Assembly (NCBI GenBank): GCA_964449165.1 | Contig: CAYVAT010000013.1 | Location: 407 to 64,406 of the forward strand | Source: an uncultured Eubacteriales bacterium | Lineage (GTDB): Bacteria > Acidobacteriota > Aminicenantia > Aminicenantales > Aminicenantaceae | Direction: 5' to 3' | Length of the DNA: 64,000 nt | Shown: positions 28,055 to 51,376 of the stretch, piece after piece | Layout: the number at the start of each line of letters is the position of its first letter | Numbering within the stretch: the first letter of the stretch is position 1 | Notes under the pieces: model-generated | The model's input: the letters and a program-made list of their open reading frames with translations, nothing else | Told to the model about the DNA's origin: nothing | Databases searched by the model: none | Position numbers and translations under genes: made by a program

Positions 28055-28702
28055 TTGATTGAGAGAGGAAAGTTGGCCAAAAAAATTCTTTTCATCATTT
28101 TGATGCTAACCGTTTTGTCTGGTCTCTATGCGGACGGATTCAAGCTTATGGTGGGATTGAATCTTTTAAAGTATTCAGCCAAGGCTAGTGAGGGCACTTT
28201 CCGATGGAGCCAAAAATTGGGATTGTGCGTGGGCGGTGGGTTCGAGTTTGATCTGTCCGAGAGTCAGAAGATTGCTATTGAGATTGATGGATTCATCGTG
28301 CAGAAGAAGGGGACCCGGATTGAGGAAGGCGAGCCCACAAATGGAGAATTGACCTTCAGCATGAGCACTCTTCGTATCCCCCTTCTCGTTCGGTTCAAAC
28401 CCAAAGCTTCCTTACCTCTTTATGTGCTAGGCGGGAGTGAATTTTCGCTTGTTTTATCTCATTCGTTTGAGAGAAGGATCGGAGAAAGCAAGCAGCAAGG
28501 GGATATAAAGGAGTTGACAAGAGGATCAGATCTGGGGATTGTTTTGGGTTGCGGTGTTGAGGTAAGAATGAAAGAATTCCAGAACCTTTTTGTGGAGATG
28601 CGATTCCATTATGGCTCGTTGAATATGAATGGAGATTATGAGGAATTTTCTTCTTTAAGAACTCATGTTCTTCTCTTAATTGTGGGTATCAAGGCCTTTT
28701 GA
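28055..28702 (+). CDS. Outer-membrane beta-barrel protein (OmpA-like/OMP_b-brl family)
   Basis: Signal peptide ...LSGLYA/DG, then alternating amphipathic beta-strand pattern, ending in an aromatic residue (...GIKAF). Confidence 0.55.
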   Translation: MIERGKLAKKILFIILMLTVLSGLYADGFKLMVGLNLLKYSAKASEGTFRWSQKLGLCVGGGFEFDLSESQKIAIEIDGFIVQKKGTRIEEGEPTNGELTFSMSTLRIPLLVRFKPKASLPLYVLGGSEFSLVLSHSFERRIGESKQQGDIKELTRGSDLGIVLGCGVEVRMKEFQNLFVEMRFHYGSLNMNGDYEEFSSLRTHVLLLIVGIKAF

Positions 28703-28734
28703 GGAGTTGAGTCCATCGGCCAGCCGGGTATGGG

Positions 28735-29358
28735 ATGAGAATCAGGAAAAAACCAATCAATCTGGCTATCCGGCTTCTTTTATGGACTGTGGTTATTTTC
28801 CCCCTCTATGCTGATTTTAAGATAATGGGAGGAATGAACATCTCCTGGTATGATGTCTCGCCTGAGTCAGCAAATATCCAGTGGGATTATAAAAGAGGAT
28901 TTTCGGCTGGAATCGGACTGGAAAAAATTTTGAATCCATTCATGCTGCTGGAACTGGATATTCTCTACTTCCAGAAAGGAAGTCGATCTGAATCGTCTTA
29001 TTTCCAAGACTCAGAGGCAAAATACAAGCTGAATGTCCTCAGTCTTCCCATTCTCTTCAGAAGCAAGTTTCTGTATAACTCCTCGCCTTATGTTGTGGGA
29101 GGAATTGAATTCTCCTCAATACTCTCCCATGAATTTGTCACCGGAGGAGAGGAGCCAGTGGATCTTAAGAATGATACCCGCAGCTTTGATTTCGGGTTTG
29201 TGTTCGGATGTGGTTTTGAGATCAAGATAGAGGATCGCCTGTTTTTTTTCGTCGAAGGGAGATACCACCTCGGATTCAGAAACATAGTGGCTAACCCTTT
29301 TTTGGAAGAAACCAAGAAAACCAGAGCTATCTTGATCCTCATCGGCCTCCGTTCTTGA
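28735..29358 (+). CDS. Outer-membrane beta-barrel protein, tandem paralog
   Basis: Signal peptide ...IFPLYA/DF. Motifs shared with the upstream gene: LYAD(G)FK(L/I)M(V)G(L/M)N, GCG(V/F)E. Confidence 0.55.
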   Translation: MRIRKKPINLAIRLLLWTVVIFPLYADFKIMGGMNISWYDVSPESANIQWDYKRGFSAGIGLEKILNPFMLLELDILYFQKGSRSESSYFQDSEAKYKLNVLSLPILFRSKFLYNSSPYVVGGIEFSSILSHEFVTGGEEPVDLKNDTRSFDFGFVFGCGFEIKIEDRLFFFVEGRYHLGFRNIVANPFLEETKKTRAILILIGLRS

Positions 29359-29424
29359 GTTTAGGGAATATCAAGGTTCATCATATCAAGGAATAAACTG
29401 AAAAATGTATGTTAGGTAGTGAGG

Positions 29425-29496
29425 CCGCGGTTCCCCTCCATCCTTGCCAAGACCCTCCCACCCTCCACCATGGGCTTCGGATGGACAGCAACCGCT
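29425..29496. repeat. Copy 1 of a ~72-nt structured repeat (hairpin with a C-rich loop), downstream of the GH38 gene
   Basis: GCGGTTCCCCTCCATCCTTGCCAAGACCCTCCCACCCTCCACCATGGGCTTCGGATGGACAGCAACCGC is about 90% identical to 33026-33102. Nested inverted repeats: GCGGTT/AACCGC and TCCATCC/GGATGGA. Confidence 0.6.
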
Positions 29497-29565
29497 GCTG
29501 GGATTGATTATATTCCTTATTATTAGCTGCCAAGGAAATGGCTTCCTTGGTAATTTTTATAGGCT

Positions 29566-32500
29566 CTAAAATACGACTTCGATGGTCTTGATTTCCGATT
29601 TTCCAAATTTGAGGGTTAGAGCATTTTTTTCCCAAGAGAGAGCTTGCTGCCGGTTTTCCATAAGATCCAGTTCGAAAATTTTCTTCGGAGATCGGAAGAA
29701 TTCAACCTGAGCTTGGGTGGGTGTTCCTTCTGCTTCATAAAGCCTGAGGATAAGACTTTCTCTGTCTTCTGCCTTCTTCACGGTCACCAGGATGATGTTT
29801 GAGGGAGATGCTTTAATGAAAGAATGCGAAGGTGGGAGTTCGCCGGAGTGAGAATCAACGAAGAGGGCTATCAGAGGGTAGTTAAATTCATAGCCCCTCT
29901 GGACTGTATCAGCCTTCCGCCAGTCGCCTTGATGGGGATAGAGAGCATAAGAGAAGCGATGTTTTCCCATGTCGGCCATGGGATCAGGCCACTTCGGAGA
30001 GCGCAGAAGGGTGAGTCTGATGACATTGTCTTTGATATCGTGGCCATATTTAGAATCATTGAGAAGGCTGACTCCGTAATTTTCGCTTGAGAGATCTGCC
30101 CAGCGGATGGCAGAGACTTCGAAGCGCGCTTTTTCCCAATCTGAGTTGCGGGAGGCGGGTCTTTGGACAGAAGCGAAAGGAATCTCATAAGTAGCCCAGT
30201 TGCTTCTGACATCGACTGGGAAAGCCACTTTGAGGAGGATGTGATCCTCCCACCAATCGGCCTTCATGTGGATGTCGATCCGGGGCAGATTTTCGTAGAG
30301 GACGATCTCCTGAGAAAAGAAAGAAGAGGGGAAGTCAGGAGTCGGTCCCCGGCGGGCCTTGGAAAGACCCAGAAAATGTTTCTCCACTTCCAGGGAGGCC
30401 AGGGCTGGCCCGTCATGGACGATTCTGATACCATCGGCTTTATCCAGCTTCCAGCTACGCCCAGTATAACCGATGTTCCATGCATCCCATCGGTCGGGCT
30501 TATCTTCAAAGAGCTGGAGTTCATTTCCGCAAGCTTCTGATGAGAGGACTTCTTTTTTCGCCAGCTTGTCGAATATGCTGATAATGTTTCCTGTTTCTGG
30601 ATGGAGATGGATGGAGAAATAACGATTTTCTAAGGATGTCTTGTTCACTTTCAAGGAACTCTCGTAGGAAGAACTCTTTCCTTCCTGGATGGTGAAGACC
30701 TTGTATCCCAGAGAGGGAATATTTCTGGCGATGAAGCAGAGAAATTTTCCTTTGTGAGAAGAAAGTACCTGGGAGGGGATTACTTCTCCCTGGTCATCGA
30801 AAACCAAGGCTCCGGCTTGCAAGGAGTCCGGCATTTTCACTTTGACTATTCCATCCCTTGCCCATGAGAGAGAGTTGAAGACGAGAAGCGGTGTTCCTTT
30901 ATTTTCTCTTGCTGTATTTATTCTCTGGGCGAGATGAAGAAGGCTTTCGTGGAGGATTGTGTTAAGAGTGCGGTAGGCTTCCAGATAGGATTCTCTAGCG
31001 TCTCTGTAGACAGGAGTAATGCTTGAGCCGGGGAGGATGTCGTGGAATTGATTCATCAAGACCTTTTCCCAGGCCTCCTTGAGTCCAGCTTGGTCGTATT
31101 CCTTGCCGAAAAGAGATGATATGGAGGCCAGTTTTTCCGTGTGGGAAAGAAGAACCTCAGATTTTCTGTTGAATTTTTTTGTTTCAGATTGGGTGGTATA
31201 GGTTCCTCGGTGGTACTCCAGATAAAGCTCATCCTTCCATACAGGAAGTGCCTCCAGATTTTTTTTGGGAAGTCCGTTCAAATATTTGGAAGCTCCGAGA
31301 TGTTTTACCTTGGGAAATATGGTCTGCTCTTTGTATTCTGTAAGACGATCGAGCATCTGGCGGTTGGGCCCCCCGCCGTGATTTCCAAGCCCGTAAAGGA
31401 TCAGGACATTCCTCAATCCTGTATTTTTTTCAAACTGTTTGAGGCCGACTGACATCCTTTCTGCCATCAGCTGGCCTACGTAGCCTGTCGGCGGGAAATA
31501 AGTCAGGATTCGCGACCCGTCCGGGCCTTCCCACCAGAAGAGGAAATAGGGGAAGAGGGTGGTGTCGTTCCAGCTTATTTTTTGGGTAATGAAGGCATCG
31601 ATACCACTCTTCTTGAAGAATTGGGGCATATTCCAGTTATAGCCGAATGAATCGGGATTCCAGCCAAGTTGCACATCGACTCCGAATTTTTGCTGGAAAT
31701 ACCTTTTCCCGTAGAGAATCTGCCGAATGAAGGACTCTCCATCTATGAGGTTGCAATCCGGCTCAACCCACATGCCTCCCACTATTTCCCAGCGGCCTTC
31801 CCGAACTTTCTTCTTGATGCGCTCAAAGACTTGAGGGTAATATTCTTCCATCCACTTGTAGGCTTGGGCCTGGCTCTGGGCATAGATAATATCAGGGTAT
31901 TCCTCCATGTTGTCCAAAATGGCAGAGAAAGTTTCTTTGGCAACCTCCACAGTCTCACGCCACCGCCACAACCAGGCCAGGTCGATATGAGAGTTTCCCA
32001 CAACAGCGATTTCATATTTATTTGAAAATTGTGAAACAGGTTTTGTTTGTTGGTAGAATTTAAGGAGAGAAGCCTTTGCTTCTGAAAGGTCGCCCTGTCG
32101 GAGGGCTTCCAGATCGAAGGTCATGACAGCCTTCTGGAACCTTTGTCTCAGGTTCTGAAATTCCTTTGAATCGATGAGGCGGGTGTACTGCTCAGAGAGA
32201 GGTCTATCACCTCTGCGGTCTGGACTCTTTTGAGCTTGCATATCGAGAAGGATGGCTCCGATTTTAAGATCCAGCAAGAACCGTGAGAGCCATTGAAAAG
32301 GCTCTTGGGCATTCTTGACAAGAAATCGGGCTTCTTGAAGTTGAAGGAATGTACCTGGTTCAGCTTCTTTTCTTTTGATCAGAGGCAAAAAGCCGGTGTT
32401 TTCGAAGTGGAAAGCCAGAAGCATCCTTTCTCCGGGTTTCGCCTTTTGGGTAAGGACAAAGGCTTTTTGGATTTCTTCGACTTGGTTTCCGAATTCGAGC

Positions 32501-32883
32501 TGGAAGCTCTCCTTGAGCTGCTCATTTTGGAAGAACTTGCCTTTGACCACCCCTATACCCCGAAAGAGGCAGGAAAGGATGATTTCGCTTCCTTGGGTTG
32601 AGACTCCGGAGAAGACGTCTGGTACCTCGAAGCGATGGCGCATCCAGAAGGCTTTGTCGCGGACTGTGGATCCTGTTCTTATCGACTGCCATGAAGCATC
32701 TTCAGTGCTAACCTTTTCTGCATCAGGGATATCTTGGATTGTCATTTTCCAGAAGGAAAGAGAATTATCCAGCAGCTTTTCTATCTCATCGATGCGATTT
32801 TGAAGAGTGTTCTGTCCGAAACCAAGGATGGTCACAGATAGAATAAAAACCAATAGAAAGTGCTTTGTCTTGAAGAATCTCAT
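29566..32883 (-). CDS. Secreted GH38-family alpha-mannosidase
   Basis: HIDLAWLW...GGMWVEPDCNL...LGWNPDSFGYN...HRGTYT are GH38 N-terminal catalytic motifs. Signal peptide MRFFKTKHFLLVFILSVTILGF. Start chosen at ATG 32883 behind AGGGGAG; the ORF-track Met at 32937 is the alternative. Confidence 0.8.
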   Translation of the reverse strand: MRFFKTKHFLLVFILSVTILGFGQNTLQNRIDEIEKLLDNSLSFWKMTIQDIPDAEKVSTEDASWQSIRTGSTVRDKAFWMRHRFEVPDVFSGVSTQGSEIILSCLFRGIGVVKGKFFQNEQLKESFQLEFGNQVEEIQKAFVLTQKAKPGERMLLAFHFENTGFLPLIKRKEAEPGTFLQLQEARFLVKNAQEPFQWLSRFLLDLKIGAILLDMQAQKSPDRRGDRPLSEQYTRLIDSKEFQNLRQRFQKAVMTFDLEALRQGDLSEAKASLLKFYQQTKPVSQFSNKYEIAVVGNSHIDLAWLWRWRETVEVAKETFSAILDNMEEYPDIIYAQSQAQAYKWMEEYYPQVFERIKKKVREGRWEIVGGMWVEPDCNLIDGESFIRQILYGKRYFQQKFGVDVQLGWNPDSFGYNWNMPQFFKKSGIDAFITQKISWNDTTLFPYFLFWWEGPDGSRILTYFPPTGYVGQLMAERMSVGLKQFEKNTGLRNVLILYGLGNHGGGPNRQMLDRLTEYKEQTIFPKVKHLGASKYLNGLPKKNLEALPVWKDELYLEYHRGTYTTQSETKKFNRKSEVLLSHTEKLASISSLFGKEYDQAGLKEAWEKVLMNQFHDILPGSSITPVYRDARESYLEAYRTLNTILHESLLHLAQRINTARENKGTPLLVFNSLSWARDGIVKVKMPDSLQAGALVFDDQGEVIPSQVLSSHKGKFLCFIARNIPSLGYKVFTIQEGKSSSYESSLKVNKTSLENRYFSIHLHPETGNIISIFDKLAKKEVLSSEACGNELQLFEDKPDRWDAWNIGYTGRSWKLDKADGIRIVHDGPALASLEVEKHFLGLSKARRGPTPDFPSSFFSQEIVLYENLPRIDIHMKADWWEDHILLKVAFPVDVRSNWATYEIPFASVQRPASRNSDWEKARFEVSAIRWADLSSENYGVSLLNDSKYGHDIKDNVIRLTLLRSPKWPDPMADMGKHRFSYALYPHQGDWRKADTVQRGYEFNYPLIALFVDSHSGELPPSHSFIKASPSNIILVTVKKAEDRESLILRLYEAEGTPTQAQVEFFRSPKKIFELDLMENRQQALSWEKNALTLKFGKSEIKTIEVVF

Positions 32884-33025
32884 TTTCTCCCCTCTTATTT
32901 CTTGGATTGTGTATATCTGATGGACATTTGAGCGCAAAAATCTTATCAGTTAAATGATGCAAGGTCAACAAGAATTAGGGGCGGTCCTCACGGGAAGAAT
33001 CTCCATTTCAGTCGTAGCTAATAAA

Positions 33026-33102
33026 GGTGTCGGTTCCTATCCATCCTTGCCAAGACCCTCCCACCCACCACTATGGGCTTCGAATGGACAGGAACCGACA
33101 CC
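33026..33102. repeat. Copy 2 of the ~75-nt structured repeat, upstream of the GH38 gene start
   Basis: GGTGTCGGTTCC...TATCCATCCTTGCCAAGACCCTCCCACCCACCACTATGGGCTTCGAATGGACA...GGAACCGACACC has a perfect 12-bp outer stem. The complementary strand carries GGTGGGTGGGAGGG. Confidence 0.6.
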
Positions 33103-33244
33103 TAATCCGAGCAGTCAAGCAAGCTGACTCGTCAGCCCGCGAATTTTCCCCAGCGAGGATGGAGAGGATCAGCTTTAGAGATTCAGGATTTTTTTCGACA
33201 TATCAGGCGGGGTTGCTGGATCTTTTCGATCTCAGGGAAAAATT

Positions 33245-33439
33245 TTAGGTTTTTTTCTTTTTTTTCCAGAGCCAGTAAATATACACTGCAGGCCACTGAT
33301 AAATGGCAAAGATGATGGGAGAAAGGATGAGCCAGTAGATGTTGAAATCCAGAACAAAAAGAAAAACAAAGGCTGTAACACCACCTAGGGAGGCTAAAAT
33401 GGAAGCAGCAAGAAGAGGCCAGCAGTGTATCTTTTTCAC
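33245..33439 (-). CDS. Small hypothetical membrane protein (2 predicted TM helices)
   Basis: 64 aa, hydrophobic with a K-rich C-terminus, GTG start and weak RBS; could be spurious. Confidence 0.25.
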   Translation of the reverse strand: MKKIHCWPLLAASILASLGGVTAFVFLFVLDFNIYWLILSPIIFAIYQWPAVYIYWLWKKKKKT

Positions 33440-33770
33440 ACTTCTTTTTTACTCTTAGAAACTGCGTATTGCAAGTGATTTAGGGAGAAGGCTGCTCGAG
33501 TCTTTCCTTATCTTTAAACTCGGTGGTTTGAAGGTTTCGGTTGATTTGTTTCTCTTTTCTGGATGTTGACCTTGCCTTTTTGGAATGTGATACTCTTATT
33601 TCTGGATGTCAGTGGATAGAAATTATAGAAAATTGAAATTCTTTAGGTGAATACACATGTCCTGAAAAGATTACAGTCTTGTATAGAGGAGACAGGTATA
33701 GGCTCTAATCAATTCTGGCATGAGATTTGCTGAAGGAATAAGCAAAGGTGACTCGAGCTGGAAAAATTGA

Positions 33771-35885
33771 TTGCAAATAAGGATGTTCATATTGAATAAA
33801 AAAAATTCCTTTATCATCCTCCTTCCCAGTTTTCTCATGATTCTTTATGGTTATGTATCGAATTCCGCTTATTCACAGGAAAAGAAAGATCAAGAAGTCA
33901 TGGAATATGAAGTGAGTGTTACTCTAAAACTGGTCCAGGTTTATGTCACGGACAGCGACGGCAAACCTGTGATAAATTTAGAAAAAGAAGATTTTGAGCT
34001 TTACGACAACGGAAAGCTCCAGTCCATCACAGATATTGAGAAACACACCCTCTTCATGCCCTCCGACAAGCCAAGGCCGCAACAAAAAGAAGAAATCCCA
34101 TCTCGCACTAATTTAAATCGTAAATTTTTTCTCTTCTTTGATTTTGCATTCAATTCTCCCAGAGGGATAAAAAACGCCAAGGAAGCAGCTCTCTATTTTA
34201 TTGATCATCAATTGGACCCATCTGATGAGGTTGGGGTTCTTTCTTATTCCATTACCAAGTATTTGACTGTTCATGAGAACTTAACGACCAATCACAAAAA
34301 AGTCAGGGAAGCTGTTGAAGGGTTGGGCATAAAAGGTATCTTGGGAAGAGCAGAAGACGTGGAGCAAAAATACTGGGAAATGGTAGGTGAAATCGATAGA
34401 AATCCTAATTTACCGGAGATTGAGAAAATAAGTTTAGAAAATGATTTTATTCAACTCAGCTATGATAGGATTTATTTCAAACAGCACGTGTCAAATTTTT
34501 CTAGAACAATGAAAGAATTAGGCCAAGCACTCAGCCATGTACAAGGACGTAAGAATATTCTTTATCTCTCAACCGGGATTCCCGGTTCAATATTTGAAGG
34601 TGGCGGAACAAAATCCCCATATCACTCACGGAAGTTAATCTTTAAGGGTGCTATTGCAGATACACACCTAAACGATAGATACGAAGAGATGATAAAGATT
34701 TTAGCCGCGTCGAACAGCTCTGTTTACCCTATATATGCAGAAGGAACAAGCATGGACTTAAATCAGAGATATGGCTTTCAGGATAAGGGTCAGCTTGGAA
34801 AATCTTCACTCCAGAGAATGGCTATAGGAACAGGAGGAAAGTATTTTGGCAACATCAACAGCTACGAGACATTCATGGAAGAGATTCAAAGTGCCACCAG
34901 CTCTTTTTATGTGCTGGGTTACTACATAGGGGAGAAATGGGATGGAAAATATCATAAAATAACAGTAAAAGTCAGGCGAAAAGGATGCAAAGTCCGCTCT
35001 CAAGCAGGATATTTCAATCCCAAGCCATTCAGCGAGCTATCTGAGTTCGAAAAGGAGTTAGATTTTATAGAATTGGCCCTGGAAGAAAGCTCACAATATC
35101 AGGCTCCTCTTAGTTTTCCTGTGGGAACCATCTCTTTTTCGGCTGAAAGAATATCTGGACTTGCTACCATATCTAAAATACCCGTTGAAATGGTTCGCGA
35201 GCTCTCCGGAAAAAAGGTTGAATTCGTTAATCTTATCTTCGATGAGAAGGACGATCTCTTTTCCTTCAAGGGTTGGAGAATAAATCTTGCTAAATTACCT
35301 CAAAATGACATTTTTTATTATTCTCTTGCCTCTCTTCCTCCCGGCAAATACACATCCCGCATTGTCATACGAAACACGAAAACGGGAAAATCAGCAGTGT
35401 CTTCTTCGCCGGTTATCATTCAAAGACCTCTAGATTCCGGCTTAAATCTCTCCTCTCCTCTGCTACTTGTGTCTGAAAAAAGTCCGGTCTATTTGAAAGG
35501 AGGTCTTATAGAGCAGGAGGATGAAGATAAAAAATCTATCGACCTGATAGACTTGTATTCCTGCAACCTCAAATTTTTTGCGCCTGTTGTGAAAGAAATA
35601 GAGCAAGGAATTCCAGAGCTTACAGCGGTGATTCGCAGTTACATTCCTCAAATCCAATATCCAGACATGAAGATTTCTCTTCGTGTGATGGATCAATCTT
35701 CAGGTGAAATCATGCCTATACCTTTTTCTATTCTTCGCCAAGATCCCAAGAATCATACTCAAATATCCTTTATCATTCTTGAAGTTCACTCCTTAAAACC
35801 AGGTAACTATATTATCTATTTCGATGCGGAAGAGACAAAGACTCGATGGAAATCCCAAGTCAGCACCACTTTTTCCATTAAATGA
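33771..35885 (+). CDS. Secreted von Willebrand factor A (VWA)-domain protein
   Basis: Signal peptide, then a VWA-like segment RKFFLFFDFAFNSPRGIKNAKEAALYFID...DEVGVLSYS that resembles the 'VWFA-related' domain common in Acidobacteria-like lineages. Confidence 0.55.
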   Translation: MQIRMFILNKKNSFIILLPSFLMILYGYVSNSAYSQEKKDQEVMEYEVSVTLKLVQVYVTDSDGKPVINLEKEDFELYDNGKLQSITDIEKHTLFMPSDKPRPQQKEEIPSRTNLNRKFFLFFDFAFNSPRGIKNAKEAALYFIDHQLDPSDEVGVLSYSITKYLTVHENLTTNHKKVREAVEGLGIKGILGRAEDVEQKYWEMVGEIDRNPNLPEIEKISLENDFIQLSYDRIYFKQHVSNFSRTMKELGQALSHVQGRKNILYLSTGIPGSIFEGGGTKSPYHSRKLIFKGAIADTHLNDRYEEMIKILAASNSSVYPIYAEGTSMDLNQRYGFQDKGQLGKSSLQRMAIGTGGKYFGNINSYETFMEEIQSATSSFYVLGYYIGEKWDGKYHKITVKVRRKGCKVRSQAGYFNPKPFSELSEFEKELDFIELALEESSQYQAPLSFPVGTISFSAERISGLATISKIPVEMVRELSGKKVEFVNLIFDEKDDLFSFKGWRINLAKLPQNDIFYYSLASLPPGKYTSRIVIRNTKTGKSAVSSSPVIIQRPLDSGLNLSSPLLLVSEKSPVYLKGGLIEQEDEDKKSIDLIDLYSCNLKFFAPVVKEIEQGIPELTAVIRSYIPQIQYPDMKISLRVMDQSSGEIMPIPFSILRQDPKNHTQISFIILEVHSLKPGNYIIYFDAEETKTRWKSQVSTTFSIK

Positions 35886-38111: not shown

Positions 38112-38122
38112 GTTGTTTTCTA

Positions 38123-38151
38123 ATTAAAATCGAGAAGAGATTTTTTGTCAA
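38123..38151 (-). promoter_or_regulatory. Sigma-70-like promoter for tRNA-Val (TTGACA-N17-TTTAAT on the minus strand)
   Basis: The reverse complement reads CTTGACAAAAAATCTCTTCTCGATTTTAAT, about 12 nt upstream of the tRNA 5' end, divergent from the rplU promoter. Confidence 0.45.
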
Positions 38152-38163
38152 GCCGAAGGGTGA

Positions 38164-38192
38164 TTGACATAAAAATAACCATATGTTAAATT
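38164..38192 (+). promoter_or_regulatory. Sigma-70-like promoter for rplU-rpmA-obg (TTGACA-N17-TAAATT)
   Basis: TTGACATAAAAATAACCATATGTTAAATT lies about 40 nt upstream of the rplU start. Confidence 0.45.
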
Positions 38193-38232
38193 TAGATTCC
38201 TTTTACAATAAATTTCATTAAAGGTCAGAAGG

Positions 38233-49922: not shown

Positions 49923-51113
49923 TTAACTGATGCCTAATCTTTTCTTGGCTTGATCGATGAGCTTTTGAAATTCTGCCAAGGCTTCCTTTTGTTCGGCCTC
50001 TAGTTTCTTGATGGCTGCTTCTTCATTCTTGATTTTTGCCAGGGTTTCTTTCATTTCTTTTTTTTCCTGGTCGCTCAGGTCCTCCTCAACTTTCTCTCCG
50101 AATTTCTTGTTGAATTCTTCTGTGAGAGCATCCAGTTCTTCGGTTTTTTCCTTAAGCTCTTTGACCTTCTCGTTGTAGTTGAGTTTGCTGTTTCCTGTGA
50201 AGAATAGCCTTTCGGCCAGGGACATGGCTTTTTCAGAATTTTTGGGGGAGAGGAAGCTGGCATCCAGCAAGTATTTTATAGCTTCTGGCTGGAAAGATGG
50301 ATCTTTTTTTGCCTTTCCGGCCAGGATGATTCCTATATTGTAGGCAATTTCACCGCTTTTTTGTTGGCCGTAGGCCTGTTTGAAATAAGTGAGCGCTTCG
50401 TCTTTTTTCCCAGTTCGATAGAGAGTCTTGGCATAGAAAAGGCAGCTGGCGAAATCTTTTAAAGTATCACAGGCCACTCGAAAAGCTTTCTCTGCATCAT
50501 TGTAAAACTTGAAATCATAAAGGGATTTCCCTACCTTCATTAGATCATTGGCGATCTGTTTATTTTTTAAGATTTTGAAAGAATTTATGTATGAATCGAC
50601 CGAGCCCTTAAGGTCCTTGTTCTTCTCCAAGGCTTGGGCTTGGGCATAATACCCAGCTCCCATAAGCTGATTCCATTGTTCTGGAGGCTCAGGGGTAGAT
50701 TCTTTATTCTTGTTCGCTTTGCTGATTTGGACAACCTGAAGGGCATAGTTTTGGGCTTTATCTAGATTTTGACCGAGGCTGCTGTATATTCCTGAAAGTA
50801 CGATGTAGATCTGACACTTGGTAAAATCATCCAGGCCGCCGAGCGCCAAGGCCTTTTCTCCGTAGCTTATGGTTTCATTTGGCGTCTTACCCTGATAAGG
50901 AGTGAGACAGAGCTGAGCATAAACATGATTTTCGTATTTTGTCCCCTTACCTCCGTATGAGTTGATATATTCCTTTAGAAGCTTAACTTTCTGAGCAGTA
51001 TCAGGTGTGGTGACAGCCTTGATGTACAGTTCATCAGCCGTGTTTTGGCCGAGAAGGGAAAAAGGCAGGATAAAGAGGATGAGGACAACTATGGTCAGTG
51101 TTCTTCCTTTCAT
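49923..51113 (-). CDS. TPR-repeat protein with N-terminal signal peptide
   Basis: Signal peptide LTIVVLILFILPFSLLGQ; TPR-like repeats; C-terminal coiled-coil EKKEMKETLAKIKNEEAAIKKLEAEQ. Confidence 0.5.
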   Translation of the reverse strand: MKGRTLTIVVLILFILPFSLLGQNTADELYIKAVTTPDTAQKVKLLKEYINSYGGKGTKYENHVYAQLCLTPYQGKTPNETISYGEKALALGGLDDFTKCQIYIVLSGIYSSLGQNLDKAQNYALQVVQISKANKNKESTPEPPEQWNQLMGAGYYAQAQALEKNKDLKGSVDSYINSFKILKNKQIANDLMKVGKSLYDFKFYNDAEKAFRVACDTLKDFASCLFYAKTLYRTGKKDEALTYFKQAYGQQKSGEIAYNIGIILAGKAKKDPSFQPEAIKYLLDASFLSPKNSEKAMSLAERLFFTGNSKLNYNEKVKELKEKTEELDALTEEFNKKFGEKVEEDLSDQEKKEMKETLAKIKNEEAAIKKLEAEQKEALAEFQKLIDQAKKRLGIS

Positions 51114-51376
51114 CTTATGACCTCTCTACAGAATTTTATGCATAATAGCCTGACATGAGATAAAAGTCAATATCTGAAATATTATTACCAAATAAATGGT
51201 AGCAAAATATGTGCCAAATTTAAATCTCGGCTTGGCGAGGATGGATAGGAACCGGAGCTGTGTCTAATTATATCCCTCATCATAGAAATGGATGTTTCCT
51301 TCTCTATCATTGAGATAGAGATGTTTCAACTCTTACCTTTTTGGACTTTTTAGATGACATTGTATAGAATGAGTCC

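Follow-up and report, generated by a model that had tools for sequence, protein, structure and literature searches.

A gene for a GH38 alpha-mannosidase lies between two copies of a hairpin with a C-rich loop in the stretch of DNA analyzed here, which covers 64,000 nucleotides (64 kb; hereafter the window) of contig CAYVAT010000013.1 (positions 407 to 64,406, forward strand) of assembly GCA_964449165.1. The assembly is labeled as an uncultured Eubacteriales bacterium and is placed by GTDB in the Aminicenantia. The locus raises the question of whether the hairpins belong to the gene or came to lie beside it independently. An earlier note, made from the sequence alone, listed several answers: a small-RNA or REP/MITE-like family, att-like borders of an acquired cassette, or a cis-regulatory RNA. 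We consider it very probable that each hairpin forms the middle module (H) of a non-autonomous transposable element of the miniature inverted-repeat type (MITE), which shares 22-bp terminal inverted repeats (TIRs) with an ISKra4/ISLre2-like (Mutator-like, UPF0236) insertion sequence (IS). The two copies beside the gene are independent, partly degraded insertions.

The repeat search returned one 67-nt direct repeat (29428-29494 and 33031-33097, 91% identity), in agreement with the two same-orientation, C-rich-loop hairpins of ~75 nt and ~90% identity that the earlier note had described. No other long repeat was found within 28500-34000. The 26-mer core TCCATCCTTGCCAAGACCCTCCCACC occurs exactly twice in the window, a count matched by none of 100 shuffles. 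Similarity is confined to the hairpins, and the flanks of copies 1 and 2 do not align. Copy 2 is a near-perfect inverted repeat with 20-bp arms (33025-33044 and 33084-33103, 95% complementary). Its RNA fold reaches -38.3 kcal/mol on the plus strand (z = -7.0) and -47.7 kcal/mol on the minus strand (z = -6.9); the fold of copy 1 is weaker (-28.1, z = -2.6, and -36.3, z = -2.1, respectively). The inner stem of copy 2, reported as TCCATCC/GGATGGA, is actually TCCATCC/GAATGGA, with one C-A mismatch on the plus strand. An Rfam search, as had been suggested, gave no family at the gathering threshold, and neither copy was matched at permissive thresholds or by a tRNA search; the best sub-threshold Rfam match was DUF3800-VIII (24.2 bits against a gathering threshold of 40.2). 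The open reading frames (ORFs) overlapping the window copies had no ORF-family match. Outside the hairpins, the segment 29520-29541 is the reverse complement of 33003-33024. These inverted flanks, which had been overlooked, are the terminal repeats of a larger element and were the key to recognizing it as a whole.

Further copies were collected in two ways. The exact loop 19-mer was searched in one genome per species and gave 64 loci (L003-L066), all of which, except one chance match, lie in Aminicenantes metagenome-assembled genomes (MAGs) or in MAGs with the same elements. Four MAGs carry about 24, 22, 9, and 9 copies, many of them at contig ends, and the Logan short-read contigs that contain the outer-membrane protein (OMP) gene of the window end inside copy 1. 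Contig ends and breaks of this kind are typical of a dispersed repeat. The REP/MITE-like option of the earlier note is the correct one, and in several Aminicenantes MAGs the family numbers dozens per genome. Separately, metagenome contigs were scanned with the terminal repeat alone, which gave a second sample of 120 loci (L098-L217) that is independent of H. Scans of viral contigs, for the terminal repeat as well as for the loop, turned up chance matches only, none of which extend.

Full elements are ~183 bp long (178-184 bp) and non-coding. They consist of a TIR, an L module, H, an R module, and a second TIR. The 22-bp TIR of the family is GTAAGCATCTCTATTTCCGTGA, and the ends read (G)GAAGCATCTCTATTTCCGTGA at the L side and TCACGGAAATAGAGATGCTTAC at the R side. 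Target-site duplications (TSDs) of 9 bp with at least 7 of 9 matches were found at 7 of 21 complete copies, compared with 4 of 420 mismatched control pairs; two are perfect (TATTCGTGC in L044 and ATCTCATTA in L015). The same terminal repeats also enclose other cargo, namely a type-2 foldback, a module named M (type 3), tandem H-H, a module named N, and further hairpin modules; hence, the family is a mosaic. The type-2 cargo is a ~320-nt long foldback and is more abundant (L044:4600-4940, L004:1142-1480, and ~34 ends in L098-L217). It occurs in both orientations, and its apical hairpin is swappable (GTCTGACTG..TCAGA or ACAATATGGGGACGTCCCCATATTGT). Type-2 cargo was considered as a structured RNA and rejected: only 5 of 82 pairs covary. 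Rfam gave no match for it. M, recognized by the motifs GCTGAYTCGTCAGCCC and TTTTCCCCAGCGAGGA, forms a 200-bp element of its own (L012:118-317, L046:4918-5170, L067:1-24), and in L046, H is inserted at the center of an M element. The family is also carried by several MAGs labeled 'uncultured Eubacteriales', namely CAYSCW01 (L008, L012, L017, L027, L035, L042, L043, L046, and L057) and the MAGs of L022, L038, and L048. The CAYSCW01 elements are the closest to those of the window, and the best matches of the window GH38 protein are from Aminicenantes; these labels are probably wrong.

Comparison with related loci shows copy 1 as an insertion. Two relatives with the same OMP neighbors (L067, whose GH38 is 93% identical, and L068, 87%) have a convergent spacer of 54-55 nt and no copy 1. 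The corresponding spacer in the window is 207 nt, and the surplus of 152 nt (29395-29546) is copy 1. A further pair of filled and empty orthologous sites is L041 and L025. The genes that converge on copy 1 are the OMP gene, with its stop at 29358, and GH38, with its stop at 29566. As noted earlier, it follows closely on the GH38 stop: the element begins 19 nt from it and the hairpin at ~70 nt. Of the full element, copy 1 has kept H, the L module, and a single terminal repeat; its R module is cut after ~14 nt, and the terminal repeat of the R end is gone. The repeat that remains has degenerated and has lost 4 nt compared with the consensus. All this makes the copy truncated and immobile. In the family's most frequent arrangement, the flanks lie the other way round relative to the loop. 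The junction of its terminal repeat and the flank (29528-29552, plus strand) forms a 10-bp hairpin followed by ATTTTTAT, a terminator-like arrangement that is absent in relatives lacking the insertion; judged from its sequence, it would end transcripts of the OMP operon.

Copy 2 belongs to a different sub-type. Its terminal repeat is followed by the short linker AGCTAATAAAG ('short-L' sub-type), it is 87% identical to the L057 and L008 elements over 116 nt, and its flanking modules are oriented opposite to those of copy 1. A terminator-like UUUAUUA follows the hairpin on the minus strand. The M fragment that abuts copy 2 is also present in the 93% relative L067, which has no H. Copy 2 had been assigned to the 5' leader of the mannosidase mRNA; the promoter places it elsewhere. 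All GH38 homologs are from Aminicenantes and 1105 aa long, and this length sets the start codon of the window gene at 32883. Between this codon and copy 2 lies a promoter (TTGACC/G, 17 nt, TG-TAAGAT) that is conserved in all four genomes compared, so copy 2 is upstream of the promoter and outside the leader. Its terminus at 32993 is 24 nt upstream of the -35 box, not 16. At the position of copy 2, H is absent from L067, L068, and L069. Each of these holds a different family remnant there (an M module, a solo terminal repeat, and the end of another element; L067:1-40, L068:856-894, and L069:59-85), ~23 nt upstream of the GH38 -35 box. Three relatives with different remnants at one point mark this as an insertion hot spot that has been hit repeatedly. 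In L068, the solo terminal repeat faces the promoter of the divergent gene, at a distance of exactly 16 nt. A 64-codon ORF (33245-33439, minus strand) between copy 2 and the next gene shares 82% DNA identity with L058:2452-2541 and may be a small gene.

The earlier note described only these two copies; the window holds a third, truncated one, located upstream of what looks like a promoter (TTGACT-17-TATTAT) of the gene at 49923-51113. The features are listed in Table 1. Elsewhere, in another Aminicenantes MAG (L058:2809-2987), an element stands beside a tRNA-Val gene, 14 nt upstream of the promoter of rplU (L21), which is conserved. In the window (~38112-38200), the rplU promoter is present and the element is absent, so the promoter is older than the insertion.

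Table 1. Coordinates of the element copies and of the GH38 gene in the window.
Feature	Position	Strand	Basis or detail
Copy 1, truncated MITE insertion (~152 nt)	29395..29546	-	Empty-site alignment; module matches to CAYSCW-type elements
Copy 1 TIR, outer end 29546	29525..29546	-	Reads GGAAGCCATTTCCTTGGCAGCT
Copy 1 hairpin module H	29421..29500	+	C-rich loop CCCTCCCACCCTCC on plus strand
Copy 2 TIR GGAAGAATCTCCATTTCAGTCG, outer end 32993	32993..33014	+	Element comparison
Copy 2 hairpin module H, 20-bp arms	33025..33103	+	Repeat and folding analysis
M cargo fragment abutting copy 2, from type-3 elements with the same terminal repeats	33110..33159	+	
Copy 3, truncated	51231..51326	-	Terminal repeat, L module, H 5' arm, first loop bases
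GH38 alpha-mannosidase coding sequence (1105 aa)	29566..32883	-	ATG start at 32883, not TTG at 32937
GH38 promoter	32940..32968	-	-35 TTGACC 32968..32963, 17-nt spacer, TG-extended -10 TAAGAT 32945..32940

The terminal repeats are shared with an autonomous partner. In L158, a transposase ORF of 389 aa (1670-2839) ends 6 nt before the terminal repeat. Its product matches the NCBIfam models for ISKra4 (1.4e-52) and ISLre2 (1.4e-42), the ISH6 models, and Pfam UPF0236 (1e-23; 84 bits, cut-off 24.3). L130 contains a complete IS of 1.3 kb with the same terminal repeats and a 9-bp TSD (ATGATTGAG/ATGATTGAC). IS66 was considered as the parent, a guess based on the GTAAGC start of the terminal repeat, and was rejected (IS66 E = 0.0011 versus 1.4e-52 for ISKra4). 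The ISKra4-like element of L158 has lost its 5' end to an IS481-like transposase gene (735-1586), and the two insertion sequences are thus nested. With the partner included, the family has all the defining features of MITEs: its members are short and non-coding, they are bounded by TIRs and TSDs, their copies are dispersed and polymorphic, and an autonomous partner exists.

The sites of insertion point to the same transposase group. A promoter-like site was defined as TTGACA, 16-18 nt, TATAAT with at least 9 of 12 matches and was scored outside the element termini. In the genome set, such a site starts at offset 16 in 14 of 76 unique ends, and 20 of 76 fall within 14-18. The independent metagenome set gave offset 16 in 26 of 110 unique ends and 15-17 in 32 of 110, with ~0.3 per other offset. 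The excess at offset 16 is seen at both element ends and with every cargo type, the IS itself included. According to Guerillot et al. (2014; PMC3942029), insertions by the transposases of TnGBS/ISLre2 and of the ISKra4 group peak at 16 bp upstream of sigma-A promoters, within a range of 15-17 bp, and occur on both sides where the complementarity of the terminal repeats is nearly perfect. The same paper gives >20% of sites with an insertion 13-17 bp upstream of such a promoter, and the elements here show the same preference. The 16-bp offset is therefore not new, having been published for the ISKra4 transposase group, and the agreement with the published ISKra4/TnGBS offset is strong independent support for the partner assignment. 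Promoter targeting also explains the gene contexts of the H copies (13 divergent, 18 tandem, and only 4 convergent); insertion sequences usually show the reverse, a preference for convergent gene pairs (PMC2942039).

Among known systems, the ISKra4 group (p-MULT 4; PMC3942029), with the related TnGBS/ISLre2, comes closest. The likeness lies in the partner transposase, which stands beside identical TIRs and best matches the ISKra4/ISLre2 models, although below the curated cut-offs, in the near-perfectly complementary terminal repeats, and in insertion 16 bp upstream of -35 boxes on either side. Unlike an ISKra4 IS, the window elements have no transposase, measure 150-190 bp, and carry a hairpin cargo that is absent from the IS. 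The word MITE does not occur in Guerillot et al. (2014), and our literature search found no report of MITEs in Aminicenantes. In the mechanism that we propose, the elements are, or were, mobilized in trans by an ISKra4-like transposase, and their integration would be directed to promoters; both steps follow the published behavior of this transposase group. H would be a passenger module under constraint that could invert in place through exchange between its two arms.

Several observations weigh against this interpretation. Neither window copy is complete, each keeps only one recognizable terminal repeat, and no clean TSD can be read at copy 1 or copy 2. At its far end, copy 2 turns into a mixture of H-type and M-type modules. 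No transposase was found within the 64-kb window, and the transposase copies seen elsewhere are truncated (L158) or frameshifted (L130); the N-terminally truncated L158 ORF falls below the NCBIfam cut-offs (ISKra4, 179 versus 205 bits; ISLre2, 146 versus 200 bits). The autonomous IS does not contain H. In addition, two distant MAGs (L022 and L038) carry H without recognizable terminal repeats, with stems of unrelated sequence that pair around the same loop; judged from these sequences, H may have an origin and a function of its own. A search for a transposase beside H in L022 and L038 found none.

The strongest alternative holds that H has a function of its own as a structured nucleic acid that is spread by MITEs, either a small RNA whose C-rich loop pairs with G-rich (Shine-Dalgarno-like) sequences or a hairpin capped by a G-quadruplex (G4), and that it serves as a portable regulatory or insulating module near promoters. 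The evidence in its favor, which also underlies the constraint on H in the main reading, starts with the pairing of the stems. The outer stem of 19 bp was compared across 44 distinct copies and is 86% paired, with 87.5% of cells paired in the covariation test; 14 of its 19 pairs have changed on both sides, none of 500 shuffles reaches this pairing, and no slid register comes near it. In the diverged copies L140, L155, L176, and L169, stems of unrelated sequence still pair around the same loop. The claim that the stem changes are partly compensatory holds for one or two pairs between the two window copies and is much stronger across the family, where the covariation bears out the selection on structure that the earlier note had suggested. 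The 38-nt loop of diverged copies keeps its C-runs while the single-base linkers vary (CC-N-CCC-A-CCC-N-CCC), and its other strand reads GGG-N-GGG-T-GGG-N-GG. The G4 potential proposed for the minus strand is borne out at the sequence level. When G-quadruplexes are allowed, ViennaRNA predicts, for the two window copies and for diverged copies alike, that the apical loop holds a G4 of two layers, with a gain of 6-11 kcal/mol on the minus strand; the candidate G4 sequences are GTGGAGGGTGGGAGGGTC and GTGGTGGGTGGGAGGGTC, with C-rich complements. Moreover, H is the best-conserved internal part of the element in copies that were found by the terminal repeat only (column identity: TIR ~0.93, loop 0.90, stems 0.83-0.89, L 0.80, and R 0.77), and it is present in several element scaffolds.

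Other observations tell against a function of H itself. About 10% of the loops are flipped relative to L and R. At one orthologous insertion seen in two MAGs (L050:7440-7720 and L062:1-216), the flank, TIR, R module, and stem are the same and the 38-nt loop is inverted, which, from the alignment, is best read as a flip in place between the hairpin arms. Such inversion relative to the flanks weakens the idea, raised earlier, that the loop mimics an anti-Shine-Dalgarno sequence. The orientation of H is not significantly biased relative to the adjacent promoter (H+ side, 10/28; H- side, 5/23) or to genes in tandem contexts (13 versus 5). An internal promoter in the L module was considered and rejected: the -10 motif varies (TAATCT, TGATCT, TCATCT), and window copy 1 has a spacer of just 15 nt. 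The second copies in tandem H-H arrays lose their G-runs. Finally, DNA palindromes can be kept and loops flipped by template switching between the arms, so the covariation is no proof of an RNA function. Two further observations favor neither side. The wobble asymmetry that would mark a transcribed strand (A-C 79 versus G-T 36) is dominated by two inherited positions. The intrinsic-terminator scan found none at H, the loop has 38 nt, and most family copies have no U-tract, yet UUUAUUA follows the stem on the minus strand of copy 2. Taken with the evidence in its favor, we regard this alternative as possible but rather unlikely. In a more specific model, H would be a selected portable hairpin whose loop forms a G4 on one strand and, on the other, either an i-motif or a C-rich surface for pairing. 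Promoter-seeking ISKra4-type MITEs would leave it upstream of sigma-70 promoters, at ~60-100 bp, where it would serve as an insulator, a terminator, or a strand-dependent promoter modulator, with loop inversion as a two-state switch. This model appears improbable. If H is instead a constrained passenger of the MITE, our best guess is that it might aid the persistence of the element as a DNA- or RNA-level hairpin. It could join both ends of a very short element, or it could serve as a transcript-end or insulator hairpin that separates the upstream gene from the targeted promoter.

The remaining alternatives concern the gene or the mode of mobility. The two hairpins might form a cis-regulatory pair specific to the GH38 mRNA, one in the 5' leader and one in the 3' region; the loop is G-rich on the GH38 sense strand in both copies, and copy 1 is in the likely 3' UTR. 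The orthologous GH38 loci at 93%, 87%, and 73% identity are all without H, the conserved promoter separates copy 2 from the leader, and the same hairpin adjoins dozens of unrelated genes. H is not a mannosidase-specific regulator, and such a pairing is very unlikely. Equally unlikely is a REP/REPIN-type element mobilized by a RAYT (HUH) transposase, in spite of the dispersed extragenic palindrome and its many copies. Single-strand HUH transposition leaves no TSD, and the family has 9-bp TSDs, 22-bp TIRs, and ends in common with a DDE (Mutator-like) IS; no RAYT was seen, in genomes that are incomplete. The att/attC-like borders of a mobile GH38 cassette, which direct repeats with the same loop orientation on either side of one gene might suggest, are scarcely credible, for the GH38 gene and its OMP neighbors are syntenic in relatives that lack the hairpins and whose sites are empty, the modules flanking the two hairpins are mutually inverted, the arms (CGGTTCC...GGAACCG) place GTT before AAC in the order opposite to that of attC R''/R' (RYYYAAC...GTTRRRY), and no integrase was found nearby. 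The apparent bracketing of the GH38 gene is a coincidence of two independent insertions.

As a MITE family with an ISKra4-like partner, the elements resemble other small bacterial repeats in part. Correia elements duplicate TA and have 26-bp terminal repeats, an IHF site, and outward promoters; to our knowledge, no transposase is known for them. The H family is like these elements (CREE/NEMIS, Neisseria) in being small, bounded by TIRs, present in many copies mostly just upstream of genes, and equipped with a conserved internal site. It differs in its 9-bp TSD, its known partner IS, and the restriction of inversion to the central loop. Inversion as such is shared, having been reported for Correia elements (review PMC10969869). 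The modular mosaic, in which one set of TIRs surrounds H, H-H, M, N, or the type-2 foldback, recalls pneumococcal BOX elements and enterobacterial BIMEs. These lack, as far as we know, such terminal repeats and TSDs as well as an ISKra4-type partner. SPRITE and REP elements, extragenic hairpins that resemble terminators or stabilize mRNA, likewise form stable GC-rich structures between genes, and the short-L sub-type (copy 2) has a U-rich tract on one strand. Most H copies, however, have no U-tract, and a loop of 38 nt is far above that of a terminator.

For the locus, it follows that annotation of the hairpins as cassette borders, as a small-RNA gene, or as a riboswitch of the mannosidase should be avoided. 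The family also accounts for the breaks that short-read assemblies of these uncultured bacteria show at such sites. It extends promoter-targeting transposition of the ISKra4/TnGBS type to non-autonomous elements in Aminicenantes, a candidate phylum without genetics. Across diverged elements, a single internal hairpin is retained with its G/C-runs conserved and is also flipped, which poses a modest, testable question. Because the elements land at a fixed distance from promoters, they may have rewired the upstream regulatory regions of many genes in the phylum.

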